From contig OY970230.1 of the NCBI GenBank assembly GCA_963714095.1, forward strand, positions 660,084 to 724,083: a stretch of 64,000 nt of DNA, in the 5' to 3' direction. Of the stretch, positions 1 to 25,762 are shown in pieces (within the stretch, counting starts at the first letter, position 1; every line of letters begins with the position of its first letter). Made by a program: the position numbers and the translations under genes. The notes beneath the pieces are model-generated. The model saw only the letters and a program-made list of their open reading frames with translations, was not told the origin of the DNA and did not search any database. Source of the stretch: Candidatus Gottesmanbacteria bacterium. GTDB taxonomy: Bacteria; Patescibacteriota; Microgenomatia; UBA10105; UBA927.

Positions 1-80
1 TATGTTTATTGAGCACGGTGATTATACTTGTTTATGCTCTATGACTCAATCATTGACGGTCTAAACTTTTGGCACGACAC

Positions 81-1295
81 ATGAAAATTTTATTGATTTC
101 TCCTGAAGACACAAAAGGAAGTAACTGGGGAGGCGTAAGTACATATACAACGTTATTAGCTAACTTTTTGGGAAGAATGCGTCAGGAAGTATATGTATTG
201 ACGCCTGGAAACAAAAACGAATCACGTTTAAACCGGATGTATCATTCCGTTCGGATTCAACGCACAAGAGAAGCAAGAAGGTTTTTTTTCTTGAGGGTAA
301 TCAGTAGAAAGCTTTGGATATATTTTCCTCTCTTTATGAAGAGAATACGTTGGGGGGTAGAAGTCTTGCATTATGTTAACACCCACGGGCCTTTTGATAT
401 TATCGAAGCACCGGAATGGGGAAATAGCACGCTGTTCGTCTCTTTATTCACAAGGCAAAAAACAATCGTAAAACTCCATCGGGGTTGGTATGCATACAGG
501 AAAGACAATGAATTACCGATGGATATTGATATTTGGCTTGTATGTATTCTGGAGTTCCTGTCCATCATTTTTGCAACGGTGATTGTGTCCCCCACTAAAT
601 ATATGCTGTCCTTTTATAAACCTTTTATATATCTCTATTCACTGAGAAGCAGAAAAAAAATAAAAGTCATTCCGTATGGAATTGAAATAAATCCAATGAC
701 CCGATTGTTATCAAAAAACATGCAAAAGGAAAAGTACATTCTGTATGTAGGAAGAATAGAAAAAGCAAAGGGCACTTTTATCCTTATCCAGGCATTTCGG
801 CGGATCACCAGACACTGTCAAAACGTACAATTGGTTATTGCGGGCGAGGATATGGACATGGTAATTGGCGATCGCACGCAAAGTTATAAGAGGTATCTAC
901 AATCCTACATACGGCGGTATCATTTTGAAAATAAGGTTACGTTTATTGGGAAAAAGACAAGAGATGAATTGAGTGCATTTTATAATAAATGCCTTTTTGT
1001 TATTGTTCCATCTTCGAAACGGGAAAATTCTCCATATGTTGTTCTAGAAGCCTTCTCTCATAATAAGACTGTTATTGCTAGCAATAACGGAGGATTACCC
1101 GAGATGATACAGGACAAAATGAATGGTGTACTATATTCACCAAATACCCCTGAAATATTGGCAGAGAAGATGCTTTATTTAATAGAACATGAAGAGGTTA
1201 GACAGAGGTTTGAAAAATATATCGCTGCTCACAAAAAGGAATTTGATATAAAAACAATCGCGCTACAAACGCTATCCTTTTATCAAACCGTCTGA
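81..1295 (+). CDS. glycosyltransferase family 1 (GT4-like); ORF track starts at TTG 69, first ATG at 81
   Basis: C-terminal GT1 signature EAFSHNKTVIASNNGGLPEMIQDKMNGVLY (E-x7-E sugar-nucleotide binding region); typical ~400 aa. Confidence 0.8.
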   Translation: MKILLISPEDTKGSNWGGVSTYTTLLANFLGRMRQEVYVLTPGNKNESRLNRMYHSVRIQRTREARRFFFLRVISRKLWIYFPLFMKRIRWGVEVLHYVNTHGPFDIIEAPEWGNSTLFVSLFTRQKTIVKLHRGWYAYRKDNELPMDIDIWLVCILEFLSIIFATVIVSPTKYMLSFYKPFIYLYSLRSRKKIKVIPYGIEINPMTRLLSKNMQKEKYILYVGRIEKAKGTFILIQAFRRITRHCQNVQLVIAGEDMDMVIGDRTQSYKRYLQSYIRRYHFENKVTFIGKKTRDELSAFYNKCLFVIVPSSKRENSPYVVLEAFSHNKTVIASNNGGLPEMIQDKMNGVLYSPNTPEILAEKMLYLIEHEEVRQRFEKYIAAHKKEFDIKTIALQTLSFYQTV

Positions 1296-2221
1296 TTTGC
1301 TGATCGGAACAGGTTGTGTTTAAGTGCCACTTTGATCGCGTCTTTCTGGAATGCATCATATTTGGTATATCCGCTGTAATGAATGGAAATCGTGTTATTT
1401 GAAAATACAGCTTCATATTCTTTATAGCACCATGCATTTATATACTGCTTCACCGGTAACTTCTTTTTTTTAACGGAAGAAAATGATAGATATATTGCAG
1501 TTTCCTCAGCAACGACTGTATATGCAAAGCGTTTTTTATAAAAATAGTCCAATACTCCATTAAGTATTTTTCTGTCGATACAGTGTTTATTAGGAATACA
1601 TAATAATCCGGAATTAAAACTGGGATCAATTTGGCTGGAGTAATGTTCGTTTATGAGTAAACGGCAGGAATATTCCATCTCTGCTTCAGAGTTATCATAA
1701 AAATTGATCGGATACGGAACATGGGCCGTGTAAAGAATTACATTTTCATCTGATTTCAGCCAATTTACTATTTCTTTTGGATAATCATAAAATAGTACAT
1801 CGGCATCGATATATATGTATCGATCAAAAGGGTTTAGGAAAAAAGCGTCCAGTTTTTTCCTCAATGGGTTTACATCTGTATCAAATCTAAATTCAAAGAT
1901 GTTTTCATATTTTTTAAACATCTTAATCATCCTGCGTTCGCTCGATGTGTGCGATTCATAGATAAGAGTAAAATGTTTATTTAATTTATGAATATCCTGT
2001 GGGGTTAACGTGCCGTCATCTACGACATATATGGGAAAATTTTCCTTTATCTGATAAAACAATGACTGTATATTGCAGATGAAAAAATCTATGTGGTCAT
2101 GGCAAAGCAATGTGCAGATGCCCACATGACTGGTGATTCTTGGTGTTTTTTTGCTGTCAAACCGGGTAATCAAAAAAGAAAACAGTACTTTTTTTGCTGC
2201 TGATTTAAGCTGTCCGAGCAT
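1283..2221 (-). CDS. GT-A fold glycosyltransferase (GT2-like nucleotide-diphospho-sugar transferase)
   Basis: IYVVDDGTLTPQD (DDGS-like motif) and YIDADVLF (DxD) motifs; sits in glycan locus. Confidence 0.5.
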   Translation of the reverse strand: MLGQLKSAAKKVLFSFLITRFDSKKTPRITSHVGICTLLCHDHIDFFICNIQSLFYQIKENFPIYVVDDGTLTPQDIHKLNKHFTLIYESHTSSERRMIKMFKKYENIFEFRFDTDVNPLRKKLDAFFLNPFDRYIYIDADVLFYDYPKEIVNWLKSDENVILYTAHVPYPINFYDNSEAEMEYSCRLLINEHYSSQIDPSFNSGLLCIPNKHCIDRKILNGVLDYFYKKRFAYTVVAEETAIYLSFSSVKKKKLPVKQYINAWCYKEYEAVFSNNTISIHYSGYTKYDAFQKDAIKVALKHNLFRSANQTV

Positions 2222-2254
2222 GGATAGGATTATAGCTATTACCGGATCGTTTTT

Positions 2255-3040
2255 CTAGCTACGGTTACCCTCAGTGTGTTTTGGTTGCGCATACATCCAC
2301 GTATATCCGTCATTCCGGAATTCATTCAAAACGGTTTTTTCGGATCCACGGACACGCGGACGTAAACCAATCGGCACGTCAGTGAGTTGTCTTTGGTGTG
2401 CATATGCCATCTTTATGGTGTGAGTACGACGGAAATTTTCTACAAATATGGCTTGTTCATGTGGATGTTTTTTTTCATGCAATTCCACAAGAAAACTGCA
2501 CGTAGCGAGTTCCGGAAATTTCTTCGGGTTGAAATAGAGCGCTTCATCTCCTTCGCAATCACAAAATATAAACGTATTTTTTACAAGTAGTTTATTTAGA
2601 TCGGGAACGTTGGGCATTTTGAGAATATGCAGGCGATTTTCTACATGATTTGCCTTAGCCATTTTTTCACAATCCCTCAGCGCCTCAAAGCTAATATCCA
2701 ATGCCCAGATCTGACTTTCAGGGATTCGCATAGCAAACCCGATCGCATAATATCCCTCGGCGCAACCGATATTTATAATCTTCGCATAACGCTTGCTGAT
2801 TATATCTACTATCCACGGATGAAGCTCTTTTTCATATACTCCCAGAAACTTGGGGATCAGTGCCGAACCGTAAGAAATATAATCCGGATACTGTAAGCCT
2901 TGAAATGGTCCGGAAAGAACGGTTTTCGCGGGCGATACCCGTTGAGCGATCCGACGTTCGTCATTGTTATCAAAAGGAACGTTAATAAAACGCCTGATCA
3001 AATTGAACGTATTGGGGAAAAAAAGATTCATATGACGCAC
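2255..3040 (-). CDS. class I SAM-dependent methyltransferase (FkbM-like)
   Basis: Motif I-like IINIGCAEGYYAIGFA and the overall length and pattern of small sugar O-methyltransferases. Confidence 0.55.
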   Translation of the reverse strand: MRHMNLFFPNTFNLIRRFINVPFDNNDERRIAQRVSPAKTVLSGPFQGLQYPDYISYGSALIPKFLGVYEKELHPWIVDIISKRYAKIINIGCAEGYYAIGFAMRIPESQIWALDISFEALRDCEKMAKANHVENRLHILKMPNVPDLNKLLVKNTFIFCDCEGDEALYFNPKKFPELATCSFLVELHEKKHPHEQAIFVENFRRTHTIKMAYAHQRQLTDVPIGLRPRVRGSEKTVLNEFRNDGYTWMYAQPKHTEGNRS

Positions 3041-3083
3041 TTCTGATATAATTCACGTTATTATTCTTTCAATTCCAGCATCA

Positions 3084-3614
3084 ATGCGACTATTATATAC
3101 GATCTTTATATCTCTTTTGTTTTTGATTGCTGCACCATGTATGGTGATAGTGGCGAGCATCGTTTTATTAACCTCAGATGCACCCCTGTTGGAACTGAAG
3201 AAATGTATTGGAAAAGACGGCAAAACGTTTACAGTATATTTGTTTAGAACAGGTAATAATTCCACCGGAAAATTTTTGCATAAAACCGGACTTGATCGTC
3301 TTCCCCAGTTTATTAATGTTATTAAGGGAGATATGATTTTAATCGGTCCCCACCCCATTTCATCAATAAATGTAAAAGAATATAAAGAACATTTCAGTAT
3401 TAGGCAATCTATAAAGCCGGGTATTATTTCTCCGCAGCTACTTCATGGACACGATAAAGAAATATTTACCCGGACACAAACCGATATCGCGTATGTAAAT
3501 CAGAAGTATATATTGACAGATTTATTGCTTTTCAAAGACGCATGCAGATTGTTCTGGATTAATTTTTGGCATAGTTTAGAGGACGCTTTTATACATTCTG
3601 ATAAAAAAAACTAA
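3084..3614 (+). CDS. small phosphoglycosyl (sugar) transferase, PglC/WbaP C-terminal-domain type
   Basis: N-terminal TM helix, then Bac_transf signature LFRTGNN...LDRLPQFINVIKGDMILIGPHP (compare KFRTM...DELPQL.NVL.GDMSLVGPRP). Confidence 0.8.
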   Translation: MRLLYTIFISLLFLIAAPCMVIVASIVLLTSDAPLLELKKCIGKDGKTFTVYLFRTGNNSTGKFLHKTGLDRLPQFINVIKGDMILIGPHPISSINVKEYKEHFSIRQSIKPGIISPQLLHGHDKEIFTRTQTDIAYVNQKYILTDLLLFKDACRLFWINFWHSLEDAFIHSDKKN

Positions 3615-3615
3615 G

Positions 3616-4389
3616 ATGAAAAAACAAATTCCTTATCAGAAATTTATTATTTTAGCGATGCCAAGAACCGGTTCTAATTACCTGTCGTATCTTTTGCATG
3701 ACCATCCGAATGTCATGTCTCTCGGGGAAGCATACTACCCACCGAGTGTTACTGTTAATCCGGGAAATCAATATATGAACAAAAGAAGAAGTTTATTCTA
3801 TTTCCGGAAACTATTTCCAACCCAATTTTTGAAATATTTCATTTTCCGGGATTATCCCCCACATATAAAAGCTGTCGGTTTCAGAGTATTTTATCATTAT
3901 AAAAAGGAAGGAGATCATTTTCAGCATTTTCCTTCTATTAAAAAATATTTAGTAGAACACAAAGAGGTAAAGATAATTCATCTTATACGGAATAATTTAT
4001 TAGAAAATTACGTTTCACTTTTTTTGGCTCTCAAAAGAGATTATTGGTGGACGGTAGGAACTAATCCTTATAAATATGAAAAAATTAAACTTCAATATAA
4101 AGACTGTCTCCGGCACTTTTCTATGTTGACCAGCATGACAAATGAATATAGACAGTTATTTAAATCTCACTCAACAATAGAAGTGTATTATGAAGACCTG
4201 GTGCAGCATAAAAAGAGAGAGCTTGATCGAATTCAAGAATTTTTAGGTATACGGCAAGAAAATTTATCCTGTGCACTTCAGAAACTTAATACCCGCCCAA
4301 TGGAACAGGTCATTTCGAATTTTGAAGCATTAAAAAAAAGGTTTGCCGGTTCTCGATGGATACACTTTTTTGACGAATCACAGGAGTAG
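3616..4389 (+). CDS. sulfotransferase family protein (PAPS-dependent, predicted)
   Basis: N-terminal 5'-PSB-like loop IILAMPRTGSNYLSYLL and 3'-PB-like IIHLIRNNLLENYVSLF; starts 1 nt after the upstream sugar-transferase gene. Confidence 0.5.
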   Translation: MKKQIPYQKFIILAMPRTGSNYLSYLLHDHPNVMSLGEAYYPPSVTVNPGNQYMNKRRSLFYFRKLFPTQFLKYFIFRDYPPHIKAVGFRVFYHYKKEGDHFQHFPSIKKYLVEHKEVKIIHLIRNNLLENYVSLFLALKRDYWWTVGTNPYKYEKIKLQYKDCLRHFSMLTSMTNEYRQLFKSHSTIEVYYEDLVQHKKRELDRIQEFLGIRQENLSCALQKLNTRPMEQVISNFEALKKRFAGSRWIHFFDESQE

Positions 4390-4435
4390 GAAAAAAGAGA
4401 AGGCGGTGTACATATCACCCGTCATCGTTCGGCTA

Positions 4436-5122
4436 CTAGAACGTATCAGGGTAAATTTTGCCATCTTGCATACGAATGAGTGATGTACACATTGTTCGTA
4501 AATAATCTAATTGTTGAGATACCAAAAGAATGGTTGTCCCTTTCGCGAATAACTGATTCATTTTTTTAATACATTTTTGTTGAAACTTACTGTCGCCGAC
4601 AGCCATCCCTTCATCGATAATGAGGATAGTCGGGTTTGCGTGTGCAGCAATGGCAAAACCGAGACGGAGCTTCATGCCGAAGGAGTATCGAAACAATGCT
4701 GTATCGATAAATTGTCTAATATCCGCGAACCGAATAATTGCGTTGAGTTTTTGCGTAATCTCTTTTTGCGACATTCCCAACAGCATGCCGTTAAGATAAA
4801 TATTCTGGACACCGGTTAAATCAGGGTGGAATCCTGCCTCAAGATCGATTAACGATACAACTTTGCCGTATGTTTTTACAACGCCTGACGTAGGATGAGT
4901 AATTCCGGAAACGATTTTAAGCAGGGTCGTTTTCCCTGAGCCATTTAGGCCAATGATACCAACTCTTTCTCCTTTTCGGACTACAAGGTTAATATCTTTC
5001 AGGGCCCAAAATGTTTCATTGGGTCCTTGTACGAATTTTTCAACCAGTGTCGGTTTTTCATGATGGATTTCATACTTTTTTGAAATATTGGTCAGTTGAA
5101 TAACAATATTTTTCATAGCCAA
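4436..5122 (-). CDS. polysaccharide/teichoic-acid export ABC transporter ATP-binding protein (Wzt/TagH-like, short form without C-terminal carbohydrate-binding domain)
   Basis: Walker A GLNGSGKTTLLKIV, Walker B LLIIDEGMAVGD; overlaps the ABC-2 permease gene by 10 nt. Confidence 0.85.
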   Translation of the reverse strand: MAMKNIVIQLTNISKKYEIHHEKPTLVEKFVQGPNETFWALKDINLVVRKGERVGIIGLNGSGKTTLLKIVSGITHPTSGVVKTYGKVVSLIDLEAGFHPDLTGVQNIYLNGMLLGMSQKEITQKLNAIIRFADIRQFIDTALFRYSFGMKLRLGFAIAAHANPTILIIDEGMAVGDSKFQQKCIKKMNQLFAKGTTILLVSQQLDYLRTMCTSLIRMQDGKIYPDTF

Positions 5123-5880
5123 TCATCGAAAGTTTTACTTTCCTTCCGGAATAAAAAGAAACCAAGTACGGTGATTACAATAATGACTACAATATTTGAA
5201 GCAAGCATACCCAAGCCAGGCGCAGGAGCACCCAAGAGTGCATATTGGGCAAGCTGCAAAATTGAAGTGAGCGGGTTCAAGCGCCAGATCCATAACATGC
5301 CCCGTGGTATTTGTGAAAGAGAATACACAATAGGTGTTGCATAAAACCATGGTATAAGGAGTGCCTGAATGAAAAAATTTACATCACGGTATTTAACGTC
5401 AAGAGCAGAAGTTAATATACTTATACCGGCTGTAAATATACACAACAAAACAATGGCAGATACGATATATGGTAATTTATTGAATGACATTTTACCGAGA
5501 AATGCTATCGGGATAAGAAGTAACACGAGGGCAACGAAAAAGTTGATAAAATTAGACAAAATGATAGAAAGCGGAATGACCATGTGTGGAAAAACAGCCT
5601 TTTTAATAAGTGACCGTTCGTTTACTATCGAAGGAGCGCACTTCGTCAGCGAGAGAGAAAAGAAATTCCAGATGAGAAGTCCTGTAAATAGGTAATAATA
5701 ATAATGCTCGATGGGTTCTTTGATAAAAAAAGTAAACACAAACCCGATAACAAGCATTTGAAGAAGCGGATTTGCAACGAGCCATAAAAACCCAAATATT
5801 GTATATTTATACCTCGCACGGAGTTCCTTGTCCGTCATGGACCAGAGGAGTTCAAAAAAATGTTGAATGTTCCTAGTCAT
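5113..5880 (-). CDS. ABC-2 type polysaccharide export permease (Wzm/TagG-like)
   Basis: ELRARYKYTIFGFLWLVANPLL ABC-2 signature, 6 predicted TM segments, coupled to a Wzt-like ATPase. Confidence 0.8.
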   Translation of the reverse strand: MTRNIQHFFELLWSMTDKELRARYKYTIFGFLWLVANPLLQMLVIGFVFTFFIKEPIEHYYYYLFTGLLIWNFFSLSLTKCAPSIVNERSLIKKAVFPHMVIPLSIILSNFINFFVALVLLLIPIAFLGKMSFNKLPYIVSAIVLLCIFTAGISILTSALDVKYRDVNFFIQALLIPWFYATPIVYSLSQIPRGMLWIWRLNPLTSILQLAQYALLGAPAPGLGMLASNIVVIIVITVLGFFLFRKESKTFDDWL

Positions 5881-5936
5881 GCAGGTATTATAACGTATAT
5901 TATTTCTGTATTATTCCAGTTGGTGTCCTTCAAATA

Positions 5937-6896
5937 TTACTGAAAGGCATGCCGGATAATTTTCTCGGCGCAGGAATTTGCGGAAAGTTTATCAGTGTTG
6001 CAGACGATATCTGGATGAGTTGGAATATCGTAATCCGCATCAAAACCCGTGAGTTGTTTGAGCTTGCCCGCTTTTGCTTTTTTATATAATCCTTTTGTAT
6101 CGCGCCGCATTCTTGTTTGAAGCGACGCGGCAATATAGATTTCGATAAACCGTTTCTTCCCTATCATTTTTTTCGCCTCTGACCGGATTTTCCCCTCAGG
6201 AGAAACGAAAGAACAAATAACAAGAATTCCGTGGTCAGCAAACATGGCTGCAAGATATGCCATCCGGCGAATATGGTCTGCCCTGTCCTGTTTACTAAAG
6301 CCCGCCGACTTTGCTAAGGGGCTTGATCGCATCGCGTCTCCGTCAAGGACCTGATACTTAAGATGCGGGAACTGGTTTTTGATAATAGAAACAAGTCTGT
6401 TTGCAATCGTTGTTTTCCCGCTGCATGGACAGCCTGTTAACCATAAGACCATGCCATGATCGAGAATTGATGAGACCTTAGAGGAAAGCATATAGGAAGA
6501 ATCTTTACTTGCAACGCTTTTGGTCCATCCGGGGTCGCCCGCCCGAAGTTTGTTGCGGATTTGAGTTCCGGATATTTGTTTTGTTTCTGCATCAACGTCG
6601 ACTAGTTCCGTTTTGTATCCGACTCCTCTTCCCCAATAAACGCCGTCAATGTCGGGGATAATCATAATTGTTCCTTTTATTTTGTTTTCAACCATCCACG
6701 TTTTAATGTACTGGGCCCGTATACTCGGAGAAAATGCCTCTTTTGCAGTATTCCGAACAAGAATTAACAGCGGTGCACCGGGGTTCTCTTTCAGCTTTTT
6801 TAACATAATCGCAGTATGACCTTTGTGAAACGGCGCCCATCGTCCGATGAACATCATGTGAGGAACGGTGATATCGGCATTTGTGAAGTAAATCAT
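5937..6896 (-). CDS. cysC: fusion protein: N-terminal HxGH nucleotidyltransferase domain + C-terminal adenylylsulfate (APS) kinase
   Basis: C-terminus: P-loop GCPCSGKTT, LDGDAMR (LDGDNxR signature), KGLYKKAKAGKLKQLTGFD (APS kinase signature). N-terminus: FIGRWAPFHKGH (HxGH) and ISGTQIR (ISST-like) nucleotidyltransferase motifs. Confidence 0.75.
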   Translation of the reverse strand: MIYFTNADITVPHMMFIGRWAPFHKGHTAIMLKKLKENPGAPLLILVRNTAKEAFSPSIRAQYIKTWMVENKIKGTIMIIPDIDGVYWGRGVGYKTELVDVDAETKQISGTQIRNKLRAGDPGWTKSVASKDSSYMLSSKVSSILDHGMVLWLTGCPCSGKTTIANRLVSIIKNQFPHLKYQVLDGDAMRSSPLAKSAGFSKQDRADHIRRMAYLAAMFADHGILVICSFVSPEGKIRSEAKKMIGKKRFIEIYIAASLQTRMRRDTKGLYKKAKAGKLKQLTGFDADYDIPTHPDIVCNTDKLSANSCAEKIIRHAFQ

Positions 6897-6941: not shown

Positions 6942-7715
6942 TTATTTAAGGATTTCAAAACCCCACCGTTTTCCGATTTCGTTTTCGATAGGATGAAATA
7001 TTCCATAATCAATGAGTATACCCAAAAGAAGAATAACCAACATGATTGCGGCAACCTGGGCCACATCATTCAGATCTCTTCCGAACATGAGCAGCTGGCC
7101 GAGTCCGGTGGTTACAAACAGCATCTCGCCGGATATAAGCGCACGCCATGCAAATGACCATGCCTGCTTAATGCCCATAAAGTATGAAGGAAACATCGAC
7201 GGAAAGATAATATGCTGATATAGTTTTATGCCCCGCGCATCAAGCATGGTTCCGGCTCTCAAAAAAGATAGAGGGATCATTCGGATTGATGAGGCGGTTG
7301 TCAGCGTTACGCTTACAACAGTTCCCATGACGATGACAAAAATTATGGCCGTATCGGTTAATCCGAACCAGAGTATTGCCATCGGTAGCCAGCAGATGCT
7401 CGGGAGCGTTTGAAATCCCAGCAGAACGACGCCGAGTGTTTGTCGCAGTAACAATGAGCGTGACAGAGCAATGCCGATGCCCGTTCCAAGCAATAAGGAA
7501 ATGAAAAAACCAATGATGAGCCGTCTGAAACTAGAAATGATTGCCGGAAACAGAAAACCACGGGCTATTTGCTGCATAAATGCAGCCGTGACTGCTTCGG
7601 GGCTTGGAAAAATCCAGAATGGAATGACATGAGAAAGTGAAAGCATTTCCCATATGAGACAAACCACGAGAAAAAAAATAAAAAAATATACGACCGGCCA
7701 GATCCGTTTATTCAT
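6942..7715 (-). CDS. ABC transporter permease, NitT/TauT family (SsuC/TauC-like)
   Basis: Binding-protein-dependent inner-membrane component pattern; adjacent cognate ATPase and NMT1/SsuA-like binding protein. Confidence 0.7.
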   Translation of the reverse strand: MNKRIWPVVYFFIFFLVVCLIWEMLSLSHVIPFWIFPSPEAVTAAFMQQIARGFLFPAIISSFRRLIIGFFISLLLGTGIGIALSRSLLLRQTLGVVLLGFQTLPSICWLPMAILWFGLTDTAIIFVIVMGTVVSVTLTTASSIRMIPLSFLRAGTMLDARGIKLYQHIIFPSMFPSYFMGIKQAWSFAWRALISGEMLFVTTGLGQLLMFGRDLNDVAQVAAIMLVILLLGILIDYGIFHPIENEIGKRWGFEILK

Positions 7716-7716
7716 A

Positions 7717-8436
7717 TTAATTAGCCGTAAGCAGAGTTCGTACTCTATTGGCTATGCGAATGACCGGTGCGTCTCCGATATTCCGCGGTCGCGGTGTACG
7801 GACTTGCACTTCGGCGGTAACAGTTGCCGGTCTTGGTGACATCACCAGTATTCGGTCACCGAGACATGCCGCTTCCCGTACATTATGTGTGACAAAAAGT
7901 ACGGTTGCGCCGGTTATTTTACAAATACGCTGCAAATCTCCGTACATCGTTTCCCGTGTCAGGGCATCCAGCGACGCAAACGGTTCGTCCATGAGGAGAA
8001 TATCAGGTGAAAGCACTAATGTTCGCGCAATAGCAGTACGTTGTTTCATACCTCCGGATAATTGATGGGGATATGCCTGTTCAAATCCATGGAGCTTCAC
8101 AAGACGTATCATGTGGGAGACTTGTATATTTATGTCCTTCGTGTTGACATTGCGCATCCGGAGTCCGAAGGAAATATTTTCCCATACGGTAAGCCACGGA
8201 AATAACGTTGGATCCTGAAAAAGCATCCCGATTTTTCCAGACGACTGGATTGTGCCCGCGGTAGCCTTTTCCAATCCTGCAATAATAGACAGCAGTGTCG
8301 ATTTTCCGCATCCGGATGGTCCCACAAAACAGACGAATTCCCCAGTCCGGATTCCAAATGAGAGATCAGCAATCGCATCAATGTCGCCGAATTGTTGACG
8401 AAATGTTTTTTTAATATGATCTACCTGTAATTTCAT
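7717..8436 (-). CDS. ABC transporter ATP-binding protein, NitT/TauT family (SsuB/TauB-like)
   Basis: Walker A GPSGCGKST, ABC signature LSGGMKQR, Walker B LLMDEPFASLD; start set at MKLQVDHIKK to avoid overlap with upstream gene. Confidence 0.8.
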   Translation of the reverse strand: MKLQVDHIKKTFRQQFGDIDAIADLSFGIRTGEFVCFVGPSGCGKSTLLSIIAGLEKATAGTIQSSGKIGMLFQDPTLFPWLTVWENISFGLRMRNVNTKDINIQVSHMIRLVKLHGFEQAYPHQLSGGMKQRTAIARTLVLSPDILLMDEPFASLDALTRETMYGDLQRICKITGATVLFVTHNVREAACLGDRILVMSPRPATVTAEVQVRTPRPRNIGDAPVIRIANRVRTLLTAN

Positions 8437-9448
8437 GGAGAATGGACAAATCAAATATGCCGTCTATCTGACCGGTTGATGTTGCGATAAAACCTTCATT
8501 GCGTGACCACGCAGAAAAGGAGGCGATGGAAGACATTGCGGGGTCGGTGCTGAACGACAAACGGTTCCAAGCATCGTCCAGTACATTTGTAGGGATTTGT
8601 TTTGATGTCAGTTTTTCTAATTCCTTGTTGACTGTGAGGCGCGCTTCTTCGGGATTATCAGTAATCCACTTTGTAATTTCTACCTGTGCCATGACCCATG
8701 AGCGGACGATTTGTGGATTCTCCTGTAAGAATTTTTTGCGGACAATGACAACAGTAGTGGAAAAGACGCCGTCCTTCCAGAGGCTCCGTTCATCGATGAT
8801 CCGTTTGCCGCCGGCTTCTGTCGTGAGAATTGTTGCCCACGGTTCGGGCGCCCATGCGCCGTCAATTTCCTTTTTTTGGAACAGCGGGACCTGGTCGGCG
8901 TTCGCAACAGGGATAATAGTGGTAGTTTTTTTCAGTCCCTCAACGGACAAATAATGCCGAAGGGATAGATCCTGTGTATTTCCCTGCTGCGGTGAGGCTA
9001 TCTTTTTGCCTTGTAAAGCCTGCGGACCAACGGATGCAAATGCAGCTGCAATATCCGGTTGCACGACAAGTGACGCCCCACCCAAGGCTGATCCGCTTAC
9101 AATGCGCACCTCCTGGCCGCCGGATTTTACATACCCGTTGATTGCCGGTCCGGGACCGATGTATCCGATATCAATCGAACCTGCAAATAATGCTTCAATT
9201 TCGGAGGGCCCTGCATTGAACACCTTCGTTTCTATCCGGATATTTTTGCCGAGATATTTTTGAAACGTTCCCTGTGAAAGCCCGATTATTGCCTGAGCGT
9301 GTGTTATGTTGGGGAAGTATCCAACCCTGACGATTGTTGTCTTGACCGGTTGTTTTGTCGCGGACCGCCGTATAGAGAAAAGATATGAGAACACGGCTAT
9401 TCCGAGAATCAAAATACCGATAACGGGAAACAGAATACTTTTTTTCAT
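8411..9448 (-). CDS. ABC transporter substrate-binding protein, NMT1/SsuA-like, with N-terminal membrane anchor
   Basis: N-terminal TM/signal, then SsuA/NMT1-type periplasmic binding-fold sequence (VRVGYFPNITHAQ...IGYIGPGPA). Confidence 0.65.
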   Translation of the reverse strand: MKKSILFPVIGILILGIAVFSYLFSIRRSATKQPVKTTIVRVGYFPNITHAQAIIGLSQGTFQKYLGKNIRIETKVFNAGPSEIEALFAGSIDIGYIGPGPAINGYVKSGGQEVRIVSGSALGGASLVVQPDIAAAFASVGPQALQGKKIASPQQGNTQDLSLRHYLSVEGLKKTTTIIPVANADQVPLFQKKEIDGAWAPEPWATILTTEAGGKRIIDERSLWKDGVFSTTVVIVRKKFLQENPQIVRSWVMAQVEITKWITDNPEEARLTVNKELEKLTSKQIPTNVLDDAWNRLSFSTDPAMSSIASFSAWSRNEGFIATSTGQIDGIFDLSILHEITGRSY

Positions 9449-9554: not shown

Positions 9555-10532
9555 TTGTTTTGTATGAAACACACGTCATCAAAGATATCTGTGGTTATTG
9601 CAGGATTCGGGTATTGGGGAAAGATACTTGCGCGGGTGGTAGCAGGTATTCCGGACGTGAGAATCACGGGAATTACAGATCCGGGGATACGTGATTCGTC
9701 AGTAGATATAGGAAATTTTCGTATTCCTGTACTGCGGGATATGGATACAGTTTTAAAAGATGAGGGTATTAACGCTGTCATGATTTCCTCCCCCGCTCAA
9801 AGCCATTTCGATATTGCACAAGAGGCGCTTATTCACAAGAAACACGTTTTTATAGAAAAACCGATGACACTTTCTTCCCGTGATGCAAAGATGCTTGTTA
9901 TTCTTGCACAAAAAAATAACCGCGTGTTTCTTGTTGATCATACGTATATATATTCCGATGCAATCGCGCAGATGAAACGCATGATAGCCCGCGGGGATAT
10001 TGGGGCTGTATATACCATGGAGAGTGTTCGGATGAATTGGGGGACGCAGCGCCCCGACTGTTCTGTAGTGTGGGATTTGGCGGCGCATGATGTTGCCATA
10101 TACCGATATTTTTTTGGTCCGCCCACAAGGGTCCGGGCAACAGGATTTCAGTACGGCCGCGTCGGGTTTCCGAATCGGGCGACAGTCTATCTGGGGAATA
10201 GACACGGAATATCGGGCATATGCGATGTCAGTTGGGTGTATCCGAAAAAAATCCGCCTTTTAACACTCATCGGGACGAAAGGATGTTTGGTCATGGATGA
10301 AATAGAATTGAAAGGGAAAATTAAAATGTACAGGAATGGATCCGTCGAAAAAACTATTGATTCGGATGACGCCCTGAAGGAACCGCTTCGCCGCGCGTGC
10401 GAAGATTTTGCCGCGTGTATACAAGAAGGTAGAACACCGCGTGTGTCCGGAACAGACGGAGCCGCCGTAGTTTCCGTTCTGGAGGCGGCCGACCGGTCGC
10501 TTACCGGGCCACAGGAATGGGAGGAACTATGA
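9555..10532 (+). CDS. Gfo/Idh/MocA family NAD(P)-dependent sugar oxidoreductase (WbpB-like)
   Basis: N-terminal Rossmann motif VVIAGFGYWGKI; family consensus EKP (FIEKPM); 16-nt overlap with downstream aminotransferase. Confidence 0.75.
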   Translation: MFCMKHTSSKISVVIAGFGYWGKILARVVAGIPDVRITGITDPGIRDSSVDIGNFRIPVLRDMDTVLKDEGINAVMISSPAQSHFDIAQEALIHKKHVFIEKPMTLSSRDAKMLVILAQKNNRVFLVDHTYIYSDAIAQMKRMIARGDIGAVYTMESVRMNWGTQRPDCSVVWDLAAHDVAIYRYFFGPPTRVRATGFQYGRVGFPNRATVYLGNRHGISGICDVSWVYPKKIRLLTLIGTKGCLVMDEIELKGKIKMYRNGSVEKTIDSDDALKEPLRRACEDFAACIQEGRTPRVSGTDGAAVVSVLEAADRSLTGPQEWEEL

Positions 10533-11635
10533 CACGAATACTTTTAGTCAATGTTGAGAGACAGTATACCGAATGCCGTCGTGAAATTGATGCTGCATAT
10601 CATCGGGTGGCGCATTCCGGTTCTTATATACTGGGAGCCGAAGTCACCGCATTTGAACAGGAGTTTGCTCATTACTGCGGAACTGACTACGCAGTAGGCG
10701 TGGCATCGGGATACGATTCATTAATATTGGCACTGCGCGCATTGGGAATAGGAGCGGGCGATGAAGTCATTACGGTATCCCATACGTTTATTTCGACTGT
10801 TTTGGCAATCCTTGCAGTTGGTGCGGTACCTATTTTGGTGGACGTTGACCCCAAGACGCTTCTTATGGATTGCTTGCAAATAAAGAAAAAGATTACATCC
10901 AAAACAAAAGCCATACTTCCGGTGCATCTCTATGGTAATGTCGTGGATATGGATTCTGTTATGGCAATTGCCCGGACCCATCATTTATTTATTGTTGAAG
11001 ATGCGTGCCAATCGCACGGGTCGTTGTATAAAGGGAAACATGCCGGCAGCATTGGTGATATCGGGTGTTTTTCGTTTTACCCGAGTAAAAATTTAGGAGC
11101 CATAGGCGACGGGGGTGTACTCGTTACGAATTCATCCCGCGTCGCAACGCGGGTAAAAATATTGCGGAATGTCGGCCAGCAAAAAAAATATCTGCATGTC
11201 ATCCGGGGATATAACAGCAGGTTAGATGCACTGCAGGCGGCGATTCTTCGCGTGAAACTCCGTCATCTAGATGAGTGGAATAAACAGCGCAGAATGATTG
11301 CCGCCACATATCGCGCAGCGTTTGCGCACCTACCCGTCCGGTGTGTTGAAGTACCAAAAAATGTACAGCCGAATTATCACCAGTTTGTCATAGAACTCCC
11401 CCGTCGGGAAAGGCTTGCGCGATACCTGGCGGAACGCGGTATTGATACCGGAATTCACTATCCTATCCCCATTCATTTACAGCCATGCATGAAATCGTTA
11501 GGGCTCCGGCGCGGGGATCTCCCCGCCACAGAAGCATGTGCCGCACACATCCTCTCCCTTCCGATGTTTCCGCAGCTGACGCCTCATGAGATAAAACGGG
11601 TAACTACGTCGATTCGAACATTTTTTCAGAGATGA
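10517..11635 (+). CDS. DegT/DnrJ/EryC1/StrS family PLP-dependent sugar aminotransferase (WbpE-like)
   Basis: Family-typical blocks LPVHLYGNVVDMDSVMAIARTHHLFIVEDACQSHGS and FSFYPSKNLGAIGDGGVLVT, including the PLP-lysine region. Confidence 0.85.
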   Translation: MGGTMTRILLVNVERQYTECRREIDAAYHRVAHSGSYILGAEVTAFEQEFAHYCGTDYAVGVASGYDSLILALRALGIGAGDEVITVSHTFISTVLAILAVGAVPILVDVDPKTLLMDCLQIKKKITSKTKAILPVHLYGNVVDMDSVMAIARTHHLFIVEDACQSHGSLYKGKHAGSIGDIGCFSFYPSKNLGAIGDGGVLVTNSSRVATRVKILRNVGQQKKYLHVIRGYNSRLDALQAAILRVKLRHLDEWNKQRRMIAATYRAAFAHLPVRCVEVPKNVQPNYHQFVIELPRRERLARYLAERGIDTGIHYPIPIHLQPCMKSLGLRRGDLPATEACAAHILSLPMFPQLTPHEIKRVTTSIRTFFQR

Positions 11636-12228
11636 AGTTTATATATCGGACAGGAATTATTCTCTGTTTTCTTTTAGCAGCTCCTATTATGGGGGGTATC
11701 GCTTTTGTTGTTGCCGTGACCTCGGGTTTTCCTGTTTTTTTCCGCCAGAAGCGGGTCGGAAAAGACGGGAAACCCTTTATCATGTACAAATTCCGCACCA
11801 TGGTCAGAGGCTCTGAGGGGAAGCAGAAAAATTTGGAGAAATTCAACGAAGCGCATGGCCCCGTGTTTAAGCTGTATAATGACCCACGATATACCGGTTT
11901 CGGTAAATTCCTTGCTCACATTGGTTTTGATGAATTGCCCCAGTTGTACAACGTCCTACGGGGCGACATGGCACTTCTGGGACCCCGTCCCCTACCTGTT
12001 GCAGAAGAGCGGAAATTAGCGCCATGGCAAAAAGAGCGGGAGCAAATTCTCCCCGGGATTATTTCCCCCTGGATTTTGGAAGGGTATCACCGGACGACCT
12101 TTGATGCGTGGATGCGAAGTGACATTGCGTATAGAAAAAACAAAAGTTTTTGGTATGATACCCGGCTGTGTGCGCGTATGATCTTCTATATGGTCTCCCT
12201 CATCGGACACGAGATTGCCGGCGGGTGA
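11632..12228 (+). CDS. small phosphoglycosyl (sugar) transferase, PglC-like (second copy)
   Basis: YKFRTMVRGSE...FDELPQLYNVLRGDMALLGPRPLPVAE is the canonical Bac_transf motif; N-terminal TM; 4-nt overlap with the aminotransferase. Confidence 0.85.
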   Translation: MKFIYRTGIILCFLLAAPIMGGIAFVVAVTSGFPVFFRQKRVGKDGKPFIMYKFRTMVRGSEGKQKNLEKFNEAHGPVFKLYNDPRYTGFGKFLAHIGFDELPQLYNVLRGDMALLGPRPLPVAEERKLAPWQKEREQILPGIISPWILEGYHRTTFDAWMRSDIAYRKNKSFWYDTRLCARMIFYMVSLIGHEIAGG

Positions 12229-12285: not shown

Positions 12286-12885
12286 ATGGAAACGAATTCC
12301 AAATGGAAGTATATATTGTTGAGCATCGGAGCATTTTTCGTTATCATCGTTATCGTGTATCTGCGCGTTGCCGCAGACTATCATATTCCGTTAGTTTCGC
12401 TTCTCCCGTCGCTGCCATTTATGAAAAGTGCGCCCGTTGCGACGCCTACTCCCGGGGTGAAGCCGACGTCCGTGCAGCGGTTTACGTCATCCACAGGTAT
12501 GGTGTCGTATACCGTGCGGGGAAAATTTGTGACGACTCCGATTTATAATGAACAAAATGTGTTGCAAAGCGAATTTGTCATAGACCAGGATCCGTCCGCT
12601 CAAAAAATTCCGGTAATTATGACAATCAAAACAGGTAAAATTAACGTCGGCAGGTCCCAGGGAAACCTCAACGGCACGACCGTATGGAAGCTGGAAGATA
12701 CGGAAAGTCTGCGACAAAGTATCAAAGTTAATGCGCCAGTACAGCTACGGTTGCAACCTATCACACCTACGCTCACGCCATACGATCTGTCCGTAAAAGA
12801 AACGATGGATAGCGTTATGGCAGGGTATTGGTCTATACCGGACGATTTTGTACTCCATCCAATGATGGTGGGAGTGGTGCAATAA
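12286..12885 (+). CDS. hypothetical membrane-anchored (N-terminal TM) protein
   Basis: ORF with a single N-terminal hydrophobic helix YILLSIGAFFVIIVIVYL; no recognised domain. Confidence 0.4.
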   Translation: METNSKWKYILLSIGAFFVIIVIVYLRVAADYHIPLVSLLPSLPFMKSAPVATPTPGVKPTSVQRFTSSTGMVSYTVRGKFVTTPIYNEQNVLQSEFVIDQDPSAQKIPVIMTIKTGKINVGRSQGNLNGTTVWKLEDTESLRQSIKVNAPVQLRLQPITPTLTPYDLSVKETMDSVMAGYWSIPDDFVLHPMMVGVVQ

Positions 12886-12912
12886 ACAGGAACCTCAATT
12901 ATTGACAGTGCG

Positions 12913-15174: not shown

Positions 15175-15236
15175 ATATTTTTTGTATTAAATTGAGTTGC
15201 ATAATATTCCTCAATGTTATACGGTAATATGAGTAT

Positions 15237-19251: not shown

Positions 19252-19275
19252 GCGTGACGTGGGTATACTTGTGAT

Positions 19276-19818
19276 ATGACGAAAGAACGGGTAGAACATG
19301 TTATATTGGCAGACACCGATATTACTCTTGTATGCGGCGATATTACGGCGCTTTCGGTTGATGCCATTGTCAATGCGGCTGACCCGAAGCTGTTGGGCGG
19401 CAAAGGCGTAGACGGGGCTATTCATAGAGCGGCAGGACCTAAACTCCTGGAAGAATGCAGAACATTAGGAGGCTGTGATACCGGGGAAGCAAAACTTACC
19501 CATGGGTATAATTTGCCGGCTCGATATGTTATTCAGACAGTCGGTCCTGTTTACGGTACTGAAAACGGGAGGGAGCCGGAGCTTCTGGCTTCCTGTTATA
19601 GAAAGAGTCTGGATCTTGCGAAACAGCATGATATTAAAACCATAGCCTTTCCATCGATTTCTACCGGTTACTTCGGGTATCCGATACGGGAAGCAGTCAA
19701 AATTGTTCGTAAAGCCATTGCTGACTATCTCCAACAGGAACACTCTTTTCAAAAAATACTATTTGTTTTGTATACTCCGGCTGATTTTGCGGTCTATCAA
19801 AGAGAATTTGCTTCTTAA
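19276..19818 (+). CDS. macro domain protein (ADP-ribose / O-acetyl-ADP-ribose processing, MacroD/YmdB-like)
   Basis: DAIVNAAD...LGGKGVDGAIHRAAGP...VIQTVGPVY macro-domain motifs. Confidence 0.85.
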   Translation: MTKERVEHVILADTDITLVCGDITALSVDAIVNAADPKLLGGKGVDGAIHRAAGPKLLEECRTLGGCDTGEAKLTHGYNLPARYVIQTVGPVYGTENGREPELLASCYRKSLDLAKQHDIKTIAFPSISTGYFGYPIREAVKIVRKAIADYLQQEHSFQKILFVLYTPADFAVYQREFAS

Positions 19819-20306
19819 ACTCCGATATTTCTCTTCAGTAATGATAACGCAGCAGCATGAAAAGACTCATGGGCTGAAGACATACAGAGATTTTTTATAA
19901 GAGATATGCGATATCCCCTATCGAACGCGTCGTATGCTGTTGCCAATACGCAACAATCCGTGTCAATGCCGCAGAGACAAAGTTTTTGAATACCGTGATT
20001 TTTTAAGAGTGTGTTCACGCCGGGGACTTTTAATGCCGAATATACATGTTTAGAAACGAGTATTCCCTGCGTAAGCACCGGTTGCAGGTCGCGGGCAATG
20101 TCCGTATCTTCCGGGGTCATACTTTTTTTCCACCCAGGGAGGCGATATACACTGGATGTCGGGGTATTGACGAAGTGCGTAAAAATAATCATATCAAATT
20201 TTTCCTTATTGTTTTGGATATACCGGCAGATTTTTCCCGGCAGCGATGCGGTGCGTGTATTGATAAAAAAGTTTTGTACGTCGATAACGAGCAGTGCCTG
20301 TTTCAT
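19815..20306 (-). CDS. isochorismatase-family cysteine hydrolase, nicotinamidase (PncA)-like
   Basis: ALLVIDVQNFF N-terminus; catalytic-Cys region LCLCGIDTDCCVLATAYDA. Confidence 0.7.
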   Translation of the reverse strand: MKQALLVIDVQNFFINTRTASLPGKICRYIQNNKEKFDMIIFTHFVNTPTSSVYRLPGWKKSMTPEDTDIARDLQPVLTQGILVSKHVYSALKVPGVNTLLKNHGIQKLCLCGIDTDCCVLATAYDAFDRGYRISLIKNLCMSSAHESFHAAALSLLKRNIGV

Positions 20307-24066: not shown

Positions 24067-24070
24067 CGAT

Positions 24071-25300: not shown

Positions 25301-25304
25301 TGAT

Positions 25305-25709
25305 ATGAAATTTATCGTACATACTGATGGGGGAGCGAGGAACAATCCCGGGCCGGCGGCAATCGGCGTGGTTATTGAAGACGGAACAAAGAAAAAAATT
25401 CAGGAGTTCGGAAAGCGGATCGGTAATGCGACAAACAACGTTGCGGAATACACGGCGGTTGCCCAAGCATTGGGGGCAATAAAAGAACTGGCAGGGGAGT
25501 CACCGGAAATATTTTTTTATTTGGACTCAACACTCGTTGTCAATCAGTTAAACGGATTCTTTAAAATTAAAGACGCGACCCTTCGCGCGCTTGCCACCGA
25601 CATCCGGATTTTGGAGACTGAGGTCGGGGGAGTGGTTCACTATACTGCCGTCCCCAGAGAACGAAACCGTCGGGCGGATTTTCTGGTAAACCAAGCATTA
25701 GATTCGTGA
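25305..25709 (+). CDS. rnhA: ribonuclease HI
   Basis: HTDGGARNNPGPAAIGVVI (DxG catalytic region), NNVAEYTAVAQALG, YLDSTLVVNQ motifs. Confidence 0.8.
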   Translation: MKFIVHTDGGARNNPGPAAIGVVIEDGTKKKIQEFGKRIGNATNNVAEYTAVAQALGAIKELAGESPEIFFYLDSTLVVNQLNGFFKIKDATLRALATDIRILETEVGGVVHYTAVPRERNRRADFLVNQALDS

Positions 25710-25762
25710 TGGTTACCTCCTCATGTCGGCTTGATTCAGTTCCCTGTGGATGAGCACCTTTT

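Follow-up and report, generated by a model that had tools for sequence, protein, structure and literature searches.

The locus raises two linked questions: where a CPR bacterium obtains APS for a predicted APS (adenylyl-sulfate) kinase, and what use it makes of the PAPS that such a kinase would produce. In the window (the whole stretch of DNA analysed, 64,000 nucleotides), a preliminary description had placed a glycan sulfation module, consisting of a sulfotransferase and an APS-kinase fusion, within a surface-glycan locus containing an ABC exporter. All four ORFs that it named are confirmed, coordinates included, and the module itself is upheld, as the matches to sulfotransferase and APS-kinase families are significant and the module recurs in other genomes. 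FtsH, 91% identical to Candidatus Gottesmanbacteria, identifies the organism as a CPR bacterium. Homology and gene order suggest that the locus very probably directs PAPS-dependent sulfation of an exported glycan. The relevant features are:

69..1295, + strand: GT4 glycosyltransferase (PF00534, E 3e-36; PF13692, E 4.6e-27; N-terminal Glyco_transf_4, E 6e-7)
1283..2221, - strand: putative GT-A-like glycosyltransferase (weak, below-cutoff matches to PF11051, E 0.0096, and NCBIfam Npun_R2821/2822, E 6e-5)
2255..3040, - strand: SAM-dependent methyltransferase in a low-GC glycan cassette (weak matches to several methyltransferase Pfams, E 7e-5 to 2e-3, all below cutoff)
3084..3614, + strand: degenerate PglC-type phosphoglycosyl transferase (PGT) paralog (PF02397, Bac_transf, E 2.2e-26)
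3616..4389, + strand: predicted PAPS-dependent sulfotransferase, NodH/Stf0-like (Sulfotransfer_3), 257 aa (Pfam, PDB match)
4436..5122, - strand: Wzt/TagH-like ABC ATPase, 228 aa (PF00005, ABC_tran, E 1e-20)
5113..5880, - strand: Wzm-like ABC-2 permease of a glycan exporter (PF01061, E 2.6e-18)
5937-6896, - strand: fusion ORF, 319 aa, HxGH nucleotidyltransferase and APS kinase (Pfam, TIGRFAM)
5937..6455, - strand: C-terminal APS-kinase domain of the fusion, aa 148-319 (PF01583, TIGR00455, PDB profiles)
6492..6896, - strand: HxGH nucleotidyltransferase domain at the N terminus of the fusion, aa 1 to ~135 (motifs, profile, AF2, Foldseek)
6942..9448, - strand: SsuABC-family ABC importer (NCBIfam)
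6942-7715, - strand: importer permease, resembling SsuC/SaoP
7717-8454, - strand: importer ATPase, resembling SaoA/TauB
8411-9448, - strand: importer binding protein (TIGR01728 SsuA_fam, 203.5 bits, cutoff 163.5)
9555..12228, + strand: GFO/IDH/MocA oxidoreductase (PF01408, E 1e-22), DegT aminotransferase (PF01041, E 1e-117) and PglC-type PGT (PF02397, E 4.7e-47)

The C-terminal half of the fusion is an APS kinase, as had been proposed. Residues 148-299 match PF01583 (APS_kinase) with an E value of 6.6e-47 (159.8 bits, cutoff 21.1), TIGR00455 is matched at 174 bits against an equivalog-domain cutoff of 138.7, and profile matches to solved APS kinases range from E 1e-50 to 1e-61. The kinase motifs are all kept (P-loop GCPCSGKT, DGDAMR, and the lid KGLYKKAKAG). 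The fusion partner, which the preliminary description had left unnamed, is an N-terminal HxGH nucleotidyltransferase domain.

The sulfotransferase assignment at 3616..4389, made originally from two motifs, is borne out by profile searches, with matches to Sulfotransfer_3 (PF13469; E 2.4e-17, 64.4 bits, cutoff 27) and Sulfotransfer_1 (PF00685; E 1.3e-8, 35 bits, cutoff 22). Its best solved relative is PDB 9vki, 'LPS sulfotransferase NodH', which aligns over residues 6-225 and places ARSGSSHL opposite the 5′-phosphosulfate-binding loop PRTGSNYL, and RENKLASYSS opposite the 3′-phosphate-binding motif RNNLLENYVS; JGI homologues are also named 'LPS sulfotransferase NodH'. The protein is cytoplasmic, as it has neither a signal peptide nor a TM segment, and as a member of this enzyme class by homology it is predicted to use PAPS to sulfate a carbohydrate.

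A Pfam scan covering the glycan-locus genes and the window ORFs no shorter than 150 aa found no sat, cysDN, cysH, cysIJ or cysQ, in agreement with the earlier statement that cysH and cysI are lacking from the window, and the window PLP enzyme is TrpB-like rather than a cysteine synthase. The earlier reading gave the APS kinase no source of APS; the N-terminal domain probably supplies it. This domain contains the motifs GRWAPFHKGH, VRNT, WGRGVGY and ISGTQIR, and ten positions are invariant in 55 homologues (R19, H24, H27, R48, R60, G89, R90, Y94, S109, R114), so that the catalytic motifs HxGH and ISxTxIR are kept in all of them, along with three more arginines. The domain is modelled by AF2 with a pLDDT of 93, with region 82-102, which carries the invariant GRxVGY, as coil. 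Its nearest structural relatives are NMNATs, which take ranks 1-5 in a Foldseek search of the PDB (TM 0.60-0.65), with ATP sulfurylases at ranks 32, 48 and 50 (E 0.17-0.29 over ~72 columns). The domain profile matches the archaeal NMNAT 1f9a (E 8e-12), PDB profile alignments cover mainly residues 11-80, and GRWAPFHKGH and ISGTQIR fit the NMNAT motifs GRxxPxHxGH and SGTxIR and align to 1f9a.

The N-domain nonetheless falls far short of the NMNAT family cutoffs, scoring 18.2 bits with TIGR01527 (cutoff 181.2) and 24.9 with PRK01153 (cutoff 127). Nor does it pass for a canonical Sat; the window protein has no PF01747 match at E ≤ 0.01, the hhalign probability is only 28% in a comparison with 12 canonical Sat sequences, and GRWAPFHKGH and WGRGVGY stand in place of QxRNPxHxxH and GRDHAG (control Sat ORFs contain RNPxHxxH and GRDHAG). 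The single NCBIfam Sat/APSK match on the fusion spans residues 69-315 and is driven by the kinase. Heterodimeric CysD/CysN was also rejected as a local source of APS, with no genes in the window and none at 11 of the 12 fusion loci compared below. From the conserved motifs and the genomic context, it seems marginally better than even that the N-domain is a non-canonical sulfate adenylyltransferase, and its union with an APS kinase is an undescribed fusion in which a small NMNAT-like domain probably replaces the usual ATP sulfurylase.

Across Patescibacteria, Omnitrophota, archaea and phage-like contigs, HxGH and APS-kinase domains are fused in both orders or encoded by neighbouring genes; in the family of the N-domain, the order is APSK-NT in 47 and NT-APSK in 18 of the 150 best-ranked representatives. 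At the Patescibacteria loci the fusion lies beside or between Wzm and Wzt with a Sulfotransfer_3 gene close by. The order is Wzm, fusion, Wzt in GCA_048499835.1 and GCA_023382895.1 (with Sulfotransfer_3 and PglC), and Wzm, Wzt, fusion, Sulfotransfer_3 on a 1.0-Mb JGI contig. Two sulfotransferases follow the fusion at an Omnitrophota locus and are also next in line to a domain-swapped APSK-HxGH protein, while at two non-CPR loci the fusion is followed by a CysQ-like Inositol_P gene and by Wzm and Wzt, respectively. Linkage of an APS-kinase gene with sulfotransferase and Wzm-Wzt genes extends to Omnitrophota, archaeal, and other MAGs. In a split case, only 2 bp separate a standalone APS kinase from the standalone HxGH gene downstream of it, a sulfotransferase-like gene being close by, and another standalone HxGH gene is followed by Sulfotransfer_3; some standalone family members are in phage-like glycan operons without a recognisable kinase or sulfotransferase. 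The recurrence in independent Patescibacteria and other MAGs indicates that the gene linkage is no coincidence of this window.

Comparison over 10 kb (Fisher test) of 12 fusion loci, which represent ~7 lineages and are not phylogenetically independent, with 75 plain cysC loci shows that Sat or CysDN is present at 1/12 fusion loci and 48/75 plain loci (p = 3.5e-4), and Wzm at 6/12 and 3/75, respectively (p = 1.3e-4); CysH is present at none of the 12. Sulfotransferases, Wzm/Wzt and CysQ-like genes abound at the fusion loci. In an unbiased Pfam scan around five further fusion loci, Sulfotransfer_3 was the commonest family (5 of 51 ORFs) and Inositol_P had two matches; Sulfotransfer_3 is not among the families listed for 11 control loci, where 100 surrounding ORFs were scanned. 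Two exceptional loci are compatible with the roles proposed for the two domains: at L016 cysDN adjoins a fusion in which the invariant R90 is lost (YGHDVGY), and at L012 DGDxxR is missing from the kinase half, which is followed by a second, intact APS kinase. The earlier view that the module is unusual for a CPR bacterium did not survive, as dozens of 90%-identity clusters are more than 50% identical to the fusion protein. The cassette is common in CPR metagenomes; it was not found in the searchable literature, and is unusual relative to that literature and not to nature.

The role of the N-domain is the part of this reading most open to other explanations. The sulfation module could be real and yet depend for its APS on canonical Sat or CysDN genes in another part of the genome, with the N-domain acting as an NMN or other adenylyltransferase, or in sensing or kinase regulation. 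We regard this as unlikely, though a serious contender given that the nearest solved relatives are NMNATs, that cysDN is beside the fusion at L016, that a plain cysC adjoins a canonical Sat in a CPR genome (Moraniibacteriota, L019), and that the absence of Sat and CysDN here covers only the window of a 1.09-Mb genome. It is harder to reconcile with the occurrence of both fusion orders and of a pair of separate neighbouring genes, and with the strong depletion of canonical ATP sulfurylases near fusions relative to plain cysC. The invariance of the catalytic motifs argues against a purely regulatory domain. Moreover, relative to M. jannaschii NMNAT (of which only two fragments are confirmed by alignment), the N-domain appears to be ~35-40 residues shorter, and the missing part is presumably the NMN-binding, nicotinamide-pocket segment, where the short GRxVGY coil lies. 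A further reading takes its cue from COASY and NadR, in both of which an HxGH adenylyltransferase is joined to a P-loop kinase. The fusion would then be an analogue of CoA synthase (PPAT and dephospho-CoA kinase) or NadR (NMNAT and kinase) and yield some other 3′-phospho-adenylyl or dinucleotide product. This is highly improbable; the kinase half has a weak AAA_28 match (E 4e-3), but it exceeds the APS-kinase equivalog-domain cutoff, matches solved APS kinases closely, shows no significant Pfam match to the CoaE or RNK families, and has sulfotransferases and CysQ-like phosphatases as neighbours.

Two other explanations concern the fate of PAPS. The sulfotransferase acceptor might be a small metabolite, lipid or protein and the proximity of Wzm/Wzt and glycosyltransferases incidental, and the diversity of Sulfotransfer_3 and NodH-like acceptors, whose specificity is not readable from sequence, leaves room for this, as do the Omnitrophota loci with the fusion and sulfotransferases but without Wzm/Wzt. 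We consider it improbable in light of the three independent CPR genomes in which the fusion is beside or between Wzm and Wzt and a sulfotransferase is in the same glycan cluster, the Wzm enrichment near fusions, and the closest solved and named relatives, which are LPS or Nod-factor sulfotransferases. Many bacteria also use APS kinase to assimilate sulfate by way of PAPS, and PAPS could be destined for reduction to cysteine rather than for sulfation. This is the least credible of the four; the fusion is consistently accompanied by sulfotransferases, CysH is missing from all of the fusion loci as cysH and cysIJ are from the window, and the TrpB-like PLP enzyme offers no cysteine synthase.

The exporter that would carry the sulfated glycan is encoded between the sulfotransferase and fusion ORFs by two genes with a 10-nt overlap, flanked by glycosyltransferases and PGTs. 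The proposal of a Wzt/Wzm exporter is supported by adjoining PF01061 and PF00005 genes within the glycan cluster, although only at the level of family membership. The permease matches the NCBIfam galactan-export Wzm/RfbD model with E 2.6e-20 (73 bits, equivalog cutoff 380), and the ATPase matches TagH with E 7e-56 (190 bits, equivalog cutoff 538) and Wzt/RfbE with E 1.5e-47 (162 bits, equivalog cutoff 400). The ATPase is short and has no C-terminal carbohydrate-binding domain. Both genes are thus predicted to function in ABC-transporter-dependent glycan export.

The favoured reading, sulfation of an exported glycan, can be set out as a chain from sulfate entry to polymer export, which taken whole is somewhat more probable than its negation. 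Sulfate or an organosulfur precursor would enter, possibly via the SsuABC-family importer. This importer, encoded immediately before the fusion and on its strand, is a candidate route of sulfate or organosulfur supply; the adjacency is seen at 1/12 fusion loci, that of the window genome only. The N-terminal HxGH domain would convert ATP and sulfate to APS and PPi, and the fused kinase, with its strong homology and full set of motifs, would convert APS to PAPS. The cytoplasmic NodH-like sulfotransferase, classed by homology, would then use PAPS to sulfate a polyprenyl-phosphate-linked glycan, the product of the PglC-type transferase, glycosyltransferases and methyltransferase (which may modify or cap the glycan), and the Wzm/Wzt homologues would carry the finished polymer to the envelope of a monoderm CPR cell. 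The exported polymer might speculatively be anionic and teichoic-acid-like or capsule-like. Clearing the PAP product would require a CysQ- or NrnA-type phosphatase encoded outside the window.

Canonical Sat is ~350-400 aa including an N-terminal PUA-like domain. Sat-APSK fusions (Aquifex aeolicus 2gks, animal PAPSS1/2) similarly unite an adenylyltransferase of the HxGH/HxxH superfamily with an APS kinase in one polypeptide, both domain orders occur in nature as in the family here, and 2gks residues 328-540 align contiguously with the ISGTxIR motif, linker and kinase of the fusion. Unlike in these bifunctional PAPS synthases, the adenylyltransferase half here is ~135 aa, has GRWxPFHxGH rather than the Sat QxRNPxHxxH, lacks a PF01747 match, and is nearest to NadM-type NMNAT by structure and profile. 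It shares with the archaeal/NadM-type enzymes (1f9a, 1m8j) the motifs GRxxPxHxGH and (I/Y)SGTxIR and a Rossmann-like core (profile E 8e-12, TM 0.64), but is only 18-22% identical, reaches 18 bits of the 181 for TIGR01527, and is fused or adjacent to APS kinase in sulfation contexts. Whether the N-domain represents a third, minimal class of ATP sulfurylase beside Sat and CysD(N), forming with the APS kinase the smallest known PAPS synthase (~320 aa), for surface-glycan sulfation in Patescibacteria, Omnitrophota, several archaeal lineages and phage-like elements, is in our estimation evenly balanced. If so, genomes scored as having cysC only and no sulfate activation would often be fully able to produce PAPS, and ultra-small bacteria would commonly have sulfated polymers in their envelopes.

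Rhizobial NodPQ and NodH, LpsS, and marine sulfated CPS clusters (PMC11641403, PMC11766843) likewise have a dedicated PAPS-supply module clustered with genes for making and exporting a glycan and with a carbohydrate sulfotransferase of the NodH type, but their ATP sulfurylase is of the CysD/CysN type (NodP/NodQ) or Sat type rather than an NMNAT-like domain, and the host here is a ~1.1-Mb CPR bacterium. The overlapping genes for an ABC-2 permease and ATPase, clustered with a polyprenyl-phosphate initiating transferase and cytoplasmic tailoring enzymes, resemble the Wzm/Wzt (O-antigen) and TagGH (wall teichoic acid) systems. They differ in that Wzt has no carbohydrate-binding domain, a small PglC-type PGT rather than WecA or TagO would initiate synthesis, and the anionic group would be sulfate and not phosphate.

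The PglC-like gene that had been noted ahead of the sulfotransferase, with its stop 1 nt before the sulfotransferase start codon, is a Bac_transf member but is degenerate. Compared with three intact homologues, a 29-residue deletion takes out the GPVFK..DPR segment and DELPQ has become LDRLPQ (DE to DR), and the intact copy in the window is at 11632-12228. That copy lies with the DegT aminotransferase and an oxidoreductase resembling UDP-GlcNAc 3-dehydrogenase (E 6e-42), a group predicted to provide an amino-sugar route and the intact initiating transferase, and the same trio is upstream of the cassette at loci L002 and L003.

The locus at window 3616–6896 very probably performs PAPS-dependent sulfation of an exported glycan. 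The preliminary description placed four genes here, and all four are present and of the identity it gave. They lie with three related features as follows:

3084–3614, directly upstream of the sulfotransferase gene: degenerate paralog of a PglC-type phosphoglycosyl transferase
3616–4389, plus strand: sulfotransferase, 257 aa (Pfam Sulfotransfer_3, E 2.4e-17, 64 bits against a cutoff of 27; Sulfotransfer_1, E 1.3e-8)
4436–5122, minus strand: ABC ATPase, best family match TagH/Wzt
5113–5880, minus strand: ABC-2 permease, best family match Wzm/RfbD
5937–6896, minus strand: 319-aa fusion of an N-terminal HxGH nucleotidyltransferase domain with an APS kinase (residues 148–299; PF01583, E 6.6e-47; TIGR00455, 174 bits against a cutoff of 138.7)
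6942–9448, same strand as the fusion gene and directly upstream of it: SsuABC-family ABC importer
11632–12228: intact PglC-type transferase, behind a GFO/IDH/MocA oxidoreductase and a DegT aminotransferase

The permease and ATPase genes overlap by 10 nt and sit between the sulfotransferase and fusion genes, and their family matches bear out the Wzt/Wzm exporter proposed from the sequence. The sulfotransferase assignment is borne out in the same way by its two Pfam matches. Its closest solved relative is 9vki (deposited as 'LPS sulfotransferase NodH'), which aligns over nearly the full length and includes both of the PAPS-binding motifs named earlier. It has just 24 homologues, and where the source gives a name it is NodH-type LPS sulfotransferase. 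The kinase half of the fusion matches PF01583, exceeds the TIGR00455 cutoff, as expected of the APS-kinase domain already recognized there, and has intact P-loop and DGDxxR motifs.

An APS kinase requires APS, and the window has no canonical source of it, which leaves a gap in the earlier reading of the locus. Pfam searches with the glycan-locus genes and with each window ORF of 150 aa or more gave no match for sat, cysDN, cysH, cysIJ, cysQ or a sulfate permease, in agreement with the reported lack of cysH and cysI in the window. The N-terminal ~135 residues of the fusion (the N-domain), not identified in the preliminary description, contain the motifs GRWAPFHKGH and ISGTQIR, which are signatures of HxGH nucleotidyltransferases. 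There is a realistic chance that the fusion conceals a new class of ATP sulfurylase; we put the N-domain being a sulfate adenylyltransferase at an even or slightly better than even chance.

The N-domain falls outside the Sat family of canonical ATP sulfurylases, nor is it a bona fide NMN adenylyltransferase (NMNAT). A profile of 55 homologues places archaeal NMNATs closest among solved structures (1f9a, E 8e-12), and a Foldseek search with the AlphaFold model (pLDDT 93.1 for the N-domain alone, 93.8 for the full-length fusion) returns NMNATs first, with TM scores of 0.60–0.65 and 18–22% identity. Nonetheless, the domain scores far below the NMNAT family cutoffs, and we take it to be ~35–40 residues shorter than the M. 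jannaschii NMNAT (only two fragments of the sequence assumed for the latter are confirmed by alignment); in the region of that shortening the model has a coil with an invariant GRxVGY motif. Residues R19, H24, H27, R48, R60, G89, R90, Y94, S109 and R114 are invariant among the 55 homologues; R48, R90 and Y94 are candidates for a sulfate site. Canonical ATP sulfurylases reach at best E 0.17–0.29 over ~72 columns in the Foldseek search, and profile-profile comparison with 12 Sat sequences gives a probability of 28%, confined to the HxGH region; these weak matches place the domain outside the Sat family.

The fusion belongs to a family of 460 clusters (E ≤ 1e-5), ~75 of which share over 50% identity with the query and are mostly unnamed or from Patescibacteria; close homologues are carried by the complete CPR contigs JASNZD010000001.1 and Ga0373628_0000001. 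The N-domain profile alone retrieves 642 representative clusters at E ≤ 1e-10 in an exhaustive search, and the best 150 of these include 47 with the kinase preceding the nucleotidyltransferase, 18 with the order reversed, and ~80 standalone proteins or fragments. Rarer partners among the same 150 are a phage-like HNH endonuclease, a DHH/DHHA1 phosphoesterase and DUF6717. Five database proteins are HNH fusions of phage type (P0170, P0208, P0252, P0253 and P0269), and the HxGH domain also has a match in the C-terminal half of phrog_10255, a phage 'kinase' family, indicating that phage-like elements carry the HxGH module. P0244 is the DHH/DHHA1 fusion; PAP phosphatase activity is known among DHH/DHHA1 enzymes, for instance in NrnA. 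The two domains are also encoded separately: at the split locus L093, 2 bp separate the end of the gene for a 176-aa APS kinase from a standalone HxGH gene (145 aa), in a string that includes a sulfotransferase-like gene and an epimerase. The end of this HxGH gene overlaps a gene for a small DUF2061 protein (8422–8646). A second standalone copy has a Sulfotransfer_3 gene immediately after it.

Together with the fused and split forms, conserved gene neighbourhoods support a joint role of the two domains in sulfation. In three independent CPR genomes the fusion gene is beside or between Wzm and Wzt genes, with Sulfotransfer_3 and PglC-type genes near, and in a MAG labelled Pseudomonadota it is followed by Wzm and Wzt. 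Two sulfotransferase genes follow both the fusion in Omnitrophota and the domain-swapped form, and on another contig the next gene is a CysQ-like Inositol_P gene. For comparison, a search of genome contigs with an APS-kinase P-loop pattern provided at least 75 loci with plain cysC (APS kinase without the N-domain) and at least five further fusion loci; the matches listed are mostly plain cysC and do not include close CPR relatives of the fusion. Canonical Sat or CysDN genes are found within 10 kb of 48 of these 75 plain cysC genes and of one of 12 independent fusion genes in all (Fisher p = 3.5e-4), and Wzm genes are near three of the 75 and six of the 12, respectively (p = 1.3e-4), although the 12 fusion loci represent ~7 lineages and the statistics are thus less independent than they look. 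None of the 12 fusion loci has CysH. The corresponding sulfotransferase count (6/12 against 0/75) is biased because the seeds came from fusion loci. When the neighbours of the five new fusion loci are instead scanned against Pfam without this bias, Sulfotransfer_3 is the commonest family (5/51 ORFs) and there are two Inositol_P matches; Sulfotransfer_3 is missing from the families listed for the 11 control loci (100 ORFs).

Two anomalous loci fit the reading of the fusion as a PAPS synthase. The only fusion locus with adjacent cysDN (Acidobacteriota; L016, 5120–8256) has an N-domain with the sequence YGHDVGY, in which the otherwise invariant R90 is lost. In an archaeon (L012, 9998–11493) the kinase half of the fusion lacks DGDxxR and a second, intact APS kinase follows, an arrangement resembling fungal ATP sulfurylase with its inactive kinase-like domain. 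Counting against the proposal, at least one CPR genome (L019) uses canonical Sat and cysC, one standalone member of the N-domain family lies in a phage-like glycan operon without a recognisable kinase or sulfotransferase, and another lacks a kinase.

We propose that the fusion would act as a self-contained PAPS synthase. The HxGH domain would adenylylate sulfate by NMNAT chemistry, with sulfate in place of the NMN phosphate, and the kinase, by strong homology, would convert APS to PAPS. The cytoplasmic NodH-like enzyme would then sulfate a polyprenyl-phosphate-linked glycan for export by Wzm/Wzt, and this product would serve the monoderm CPR cell as an anionic polymer of the wall or capsule. 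The SsuABC-family importer, whose binding protein (8411–9448) scores 203.5 bits against a curated SsuA-family cutoff of 163.5, may supply sulfate or an organosulfur source; its adjacency to the fusion is unique to this genome (1/12 fusion loci). PAP disposal would not be accounted for by the window genes. Functionally the locus is like the NodPQ/NodH-type and PAPSS-type sulfation modules, but it is placed in a Wzm/Wzt glycan locus, its host is a CPR bacterium, and its putative sulfate-activating component does not pass any of the tests for belonging to Sat or CysDN. Full-text literature searches found no description of an HxGH–APS kinase fusion or of sulfotransferases in CPR, and the database name of the protein is simply 'adenylyl-sulfate kinase'.

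Should the N-domain prove to be a sulfate adenylyltransferase, a central step of sulfur metabolism would gain a new family of enzymes, and the fusion would be a very compact PAPS synthase of possible use in PAPS regeneration in vitro and in vivo. Pathway calls of 'APS kinase without ATP sulfurylase' in thousands of metagenome-assembled genomes would need correcting, and many Patescibacteria would be devoting part of their limited coding capacity to sulfating a glycan for export. Attachment to hosts and exposure to phages are both mediated by the envelope; to our knowledge almost nothing is known of CPR surface chemistry, and a sulfated exported glycan is a concrete, testable prediction.

The CPR-like host recognized earlier is correct: FtsH of the window shares 91% identity with proteins named Candidatus Gottesmanbacteria, and its other named matches are from Patescibacteria. 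The genes at window 1–5880 (GT4, a GT-A-like ORF, the PglC-like gene, sulfotransferase, Wzt and Wzm) have a GC content of 34–39%, compared with 45–48% for the fusion gene and all window DNA to its right, which suggests that the glycan cassette is a variable, horizontally exchanged locus abutting native genes. Beyond the left edge of the window, the corresponding metagenome contig has two GT2 genes, one GT4 gene and one Wzy_C gene. The PglC-like gene is of the family and in the position described, but is a degenerate copy, with 29 aa deleted including the conserved GPVFK..DPR segment and the catalytic Asp-Glu dyad replaced by Asp-Arg. Promoter and terminator scans did no better than on shuffled sequence (35 against 32 expected and 8 against 12 expected, respectively) and are uninformative on operon structure, and an Rfam scan of the window for regulatory RNAs gave two tRNAs and nothing else.

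Two other window proteins were considered for roles in sulfur metabolism and rejected. A membrane-anchored protein of the PF00884 'Sulfatase' family (48850–50400, E 5e-38) was a candidate sulfate scavenger, but it has TLPSH rather than C/S-x-P-x-R and thus no formylglycine site; as judged by its predicted Thr nucleophile it is LtaS/EptA-like rather than a sulfatase. After it comes a gene (50464–52488) for a Phosphodiest-family protein of 674 aa. A PLP enzyme (58716–60026) considered as a cysteine synthase is TrpB-like (PRK12391, 698 bits), and at 58541–61431 it is accompanied by tRNA-Trp and a class Ib (Trp/Tyr) tRNA synthetase with a C-terminal tRNA_bind domain.

Elsewhere in the window, three successive ORFs of 199, 753 and 578 aa without Pfam matches (12286–16973), just past the intact PglC gene, possibly encode envelope or secreted proteins. 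At 17038–20306 an NB-ARC/TPR STAND NTPase precedes a Macro-domain protein and a convergent isochorismatase-family gene, which may constitute a defence or ADP-ribose/NAD-related cluster. The region at 37474–47471, with a tyrosine integrase, tRNA-Met, a large serine recombinase, an HTH protein and several ORFs without Pfam matches, is probably an integrated mobile element beside a tRNA. A separate pair of Wzy_C and Wzx-type (Polysacc_synt) genes is located at 22831–28315 together with an 850-aa DUF4012 protein, and indicates that the genome also has a Wzx/Wzy-type glycan route.
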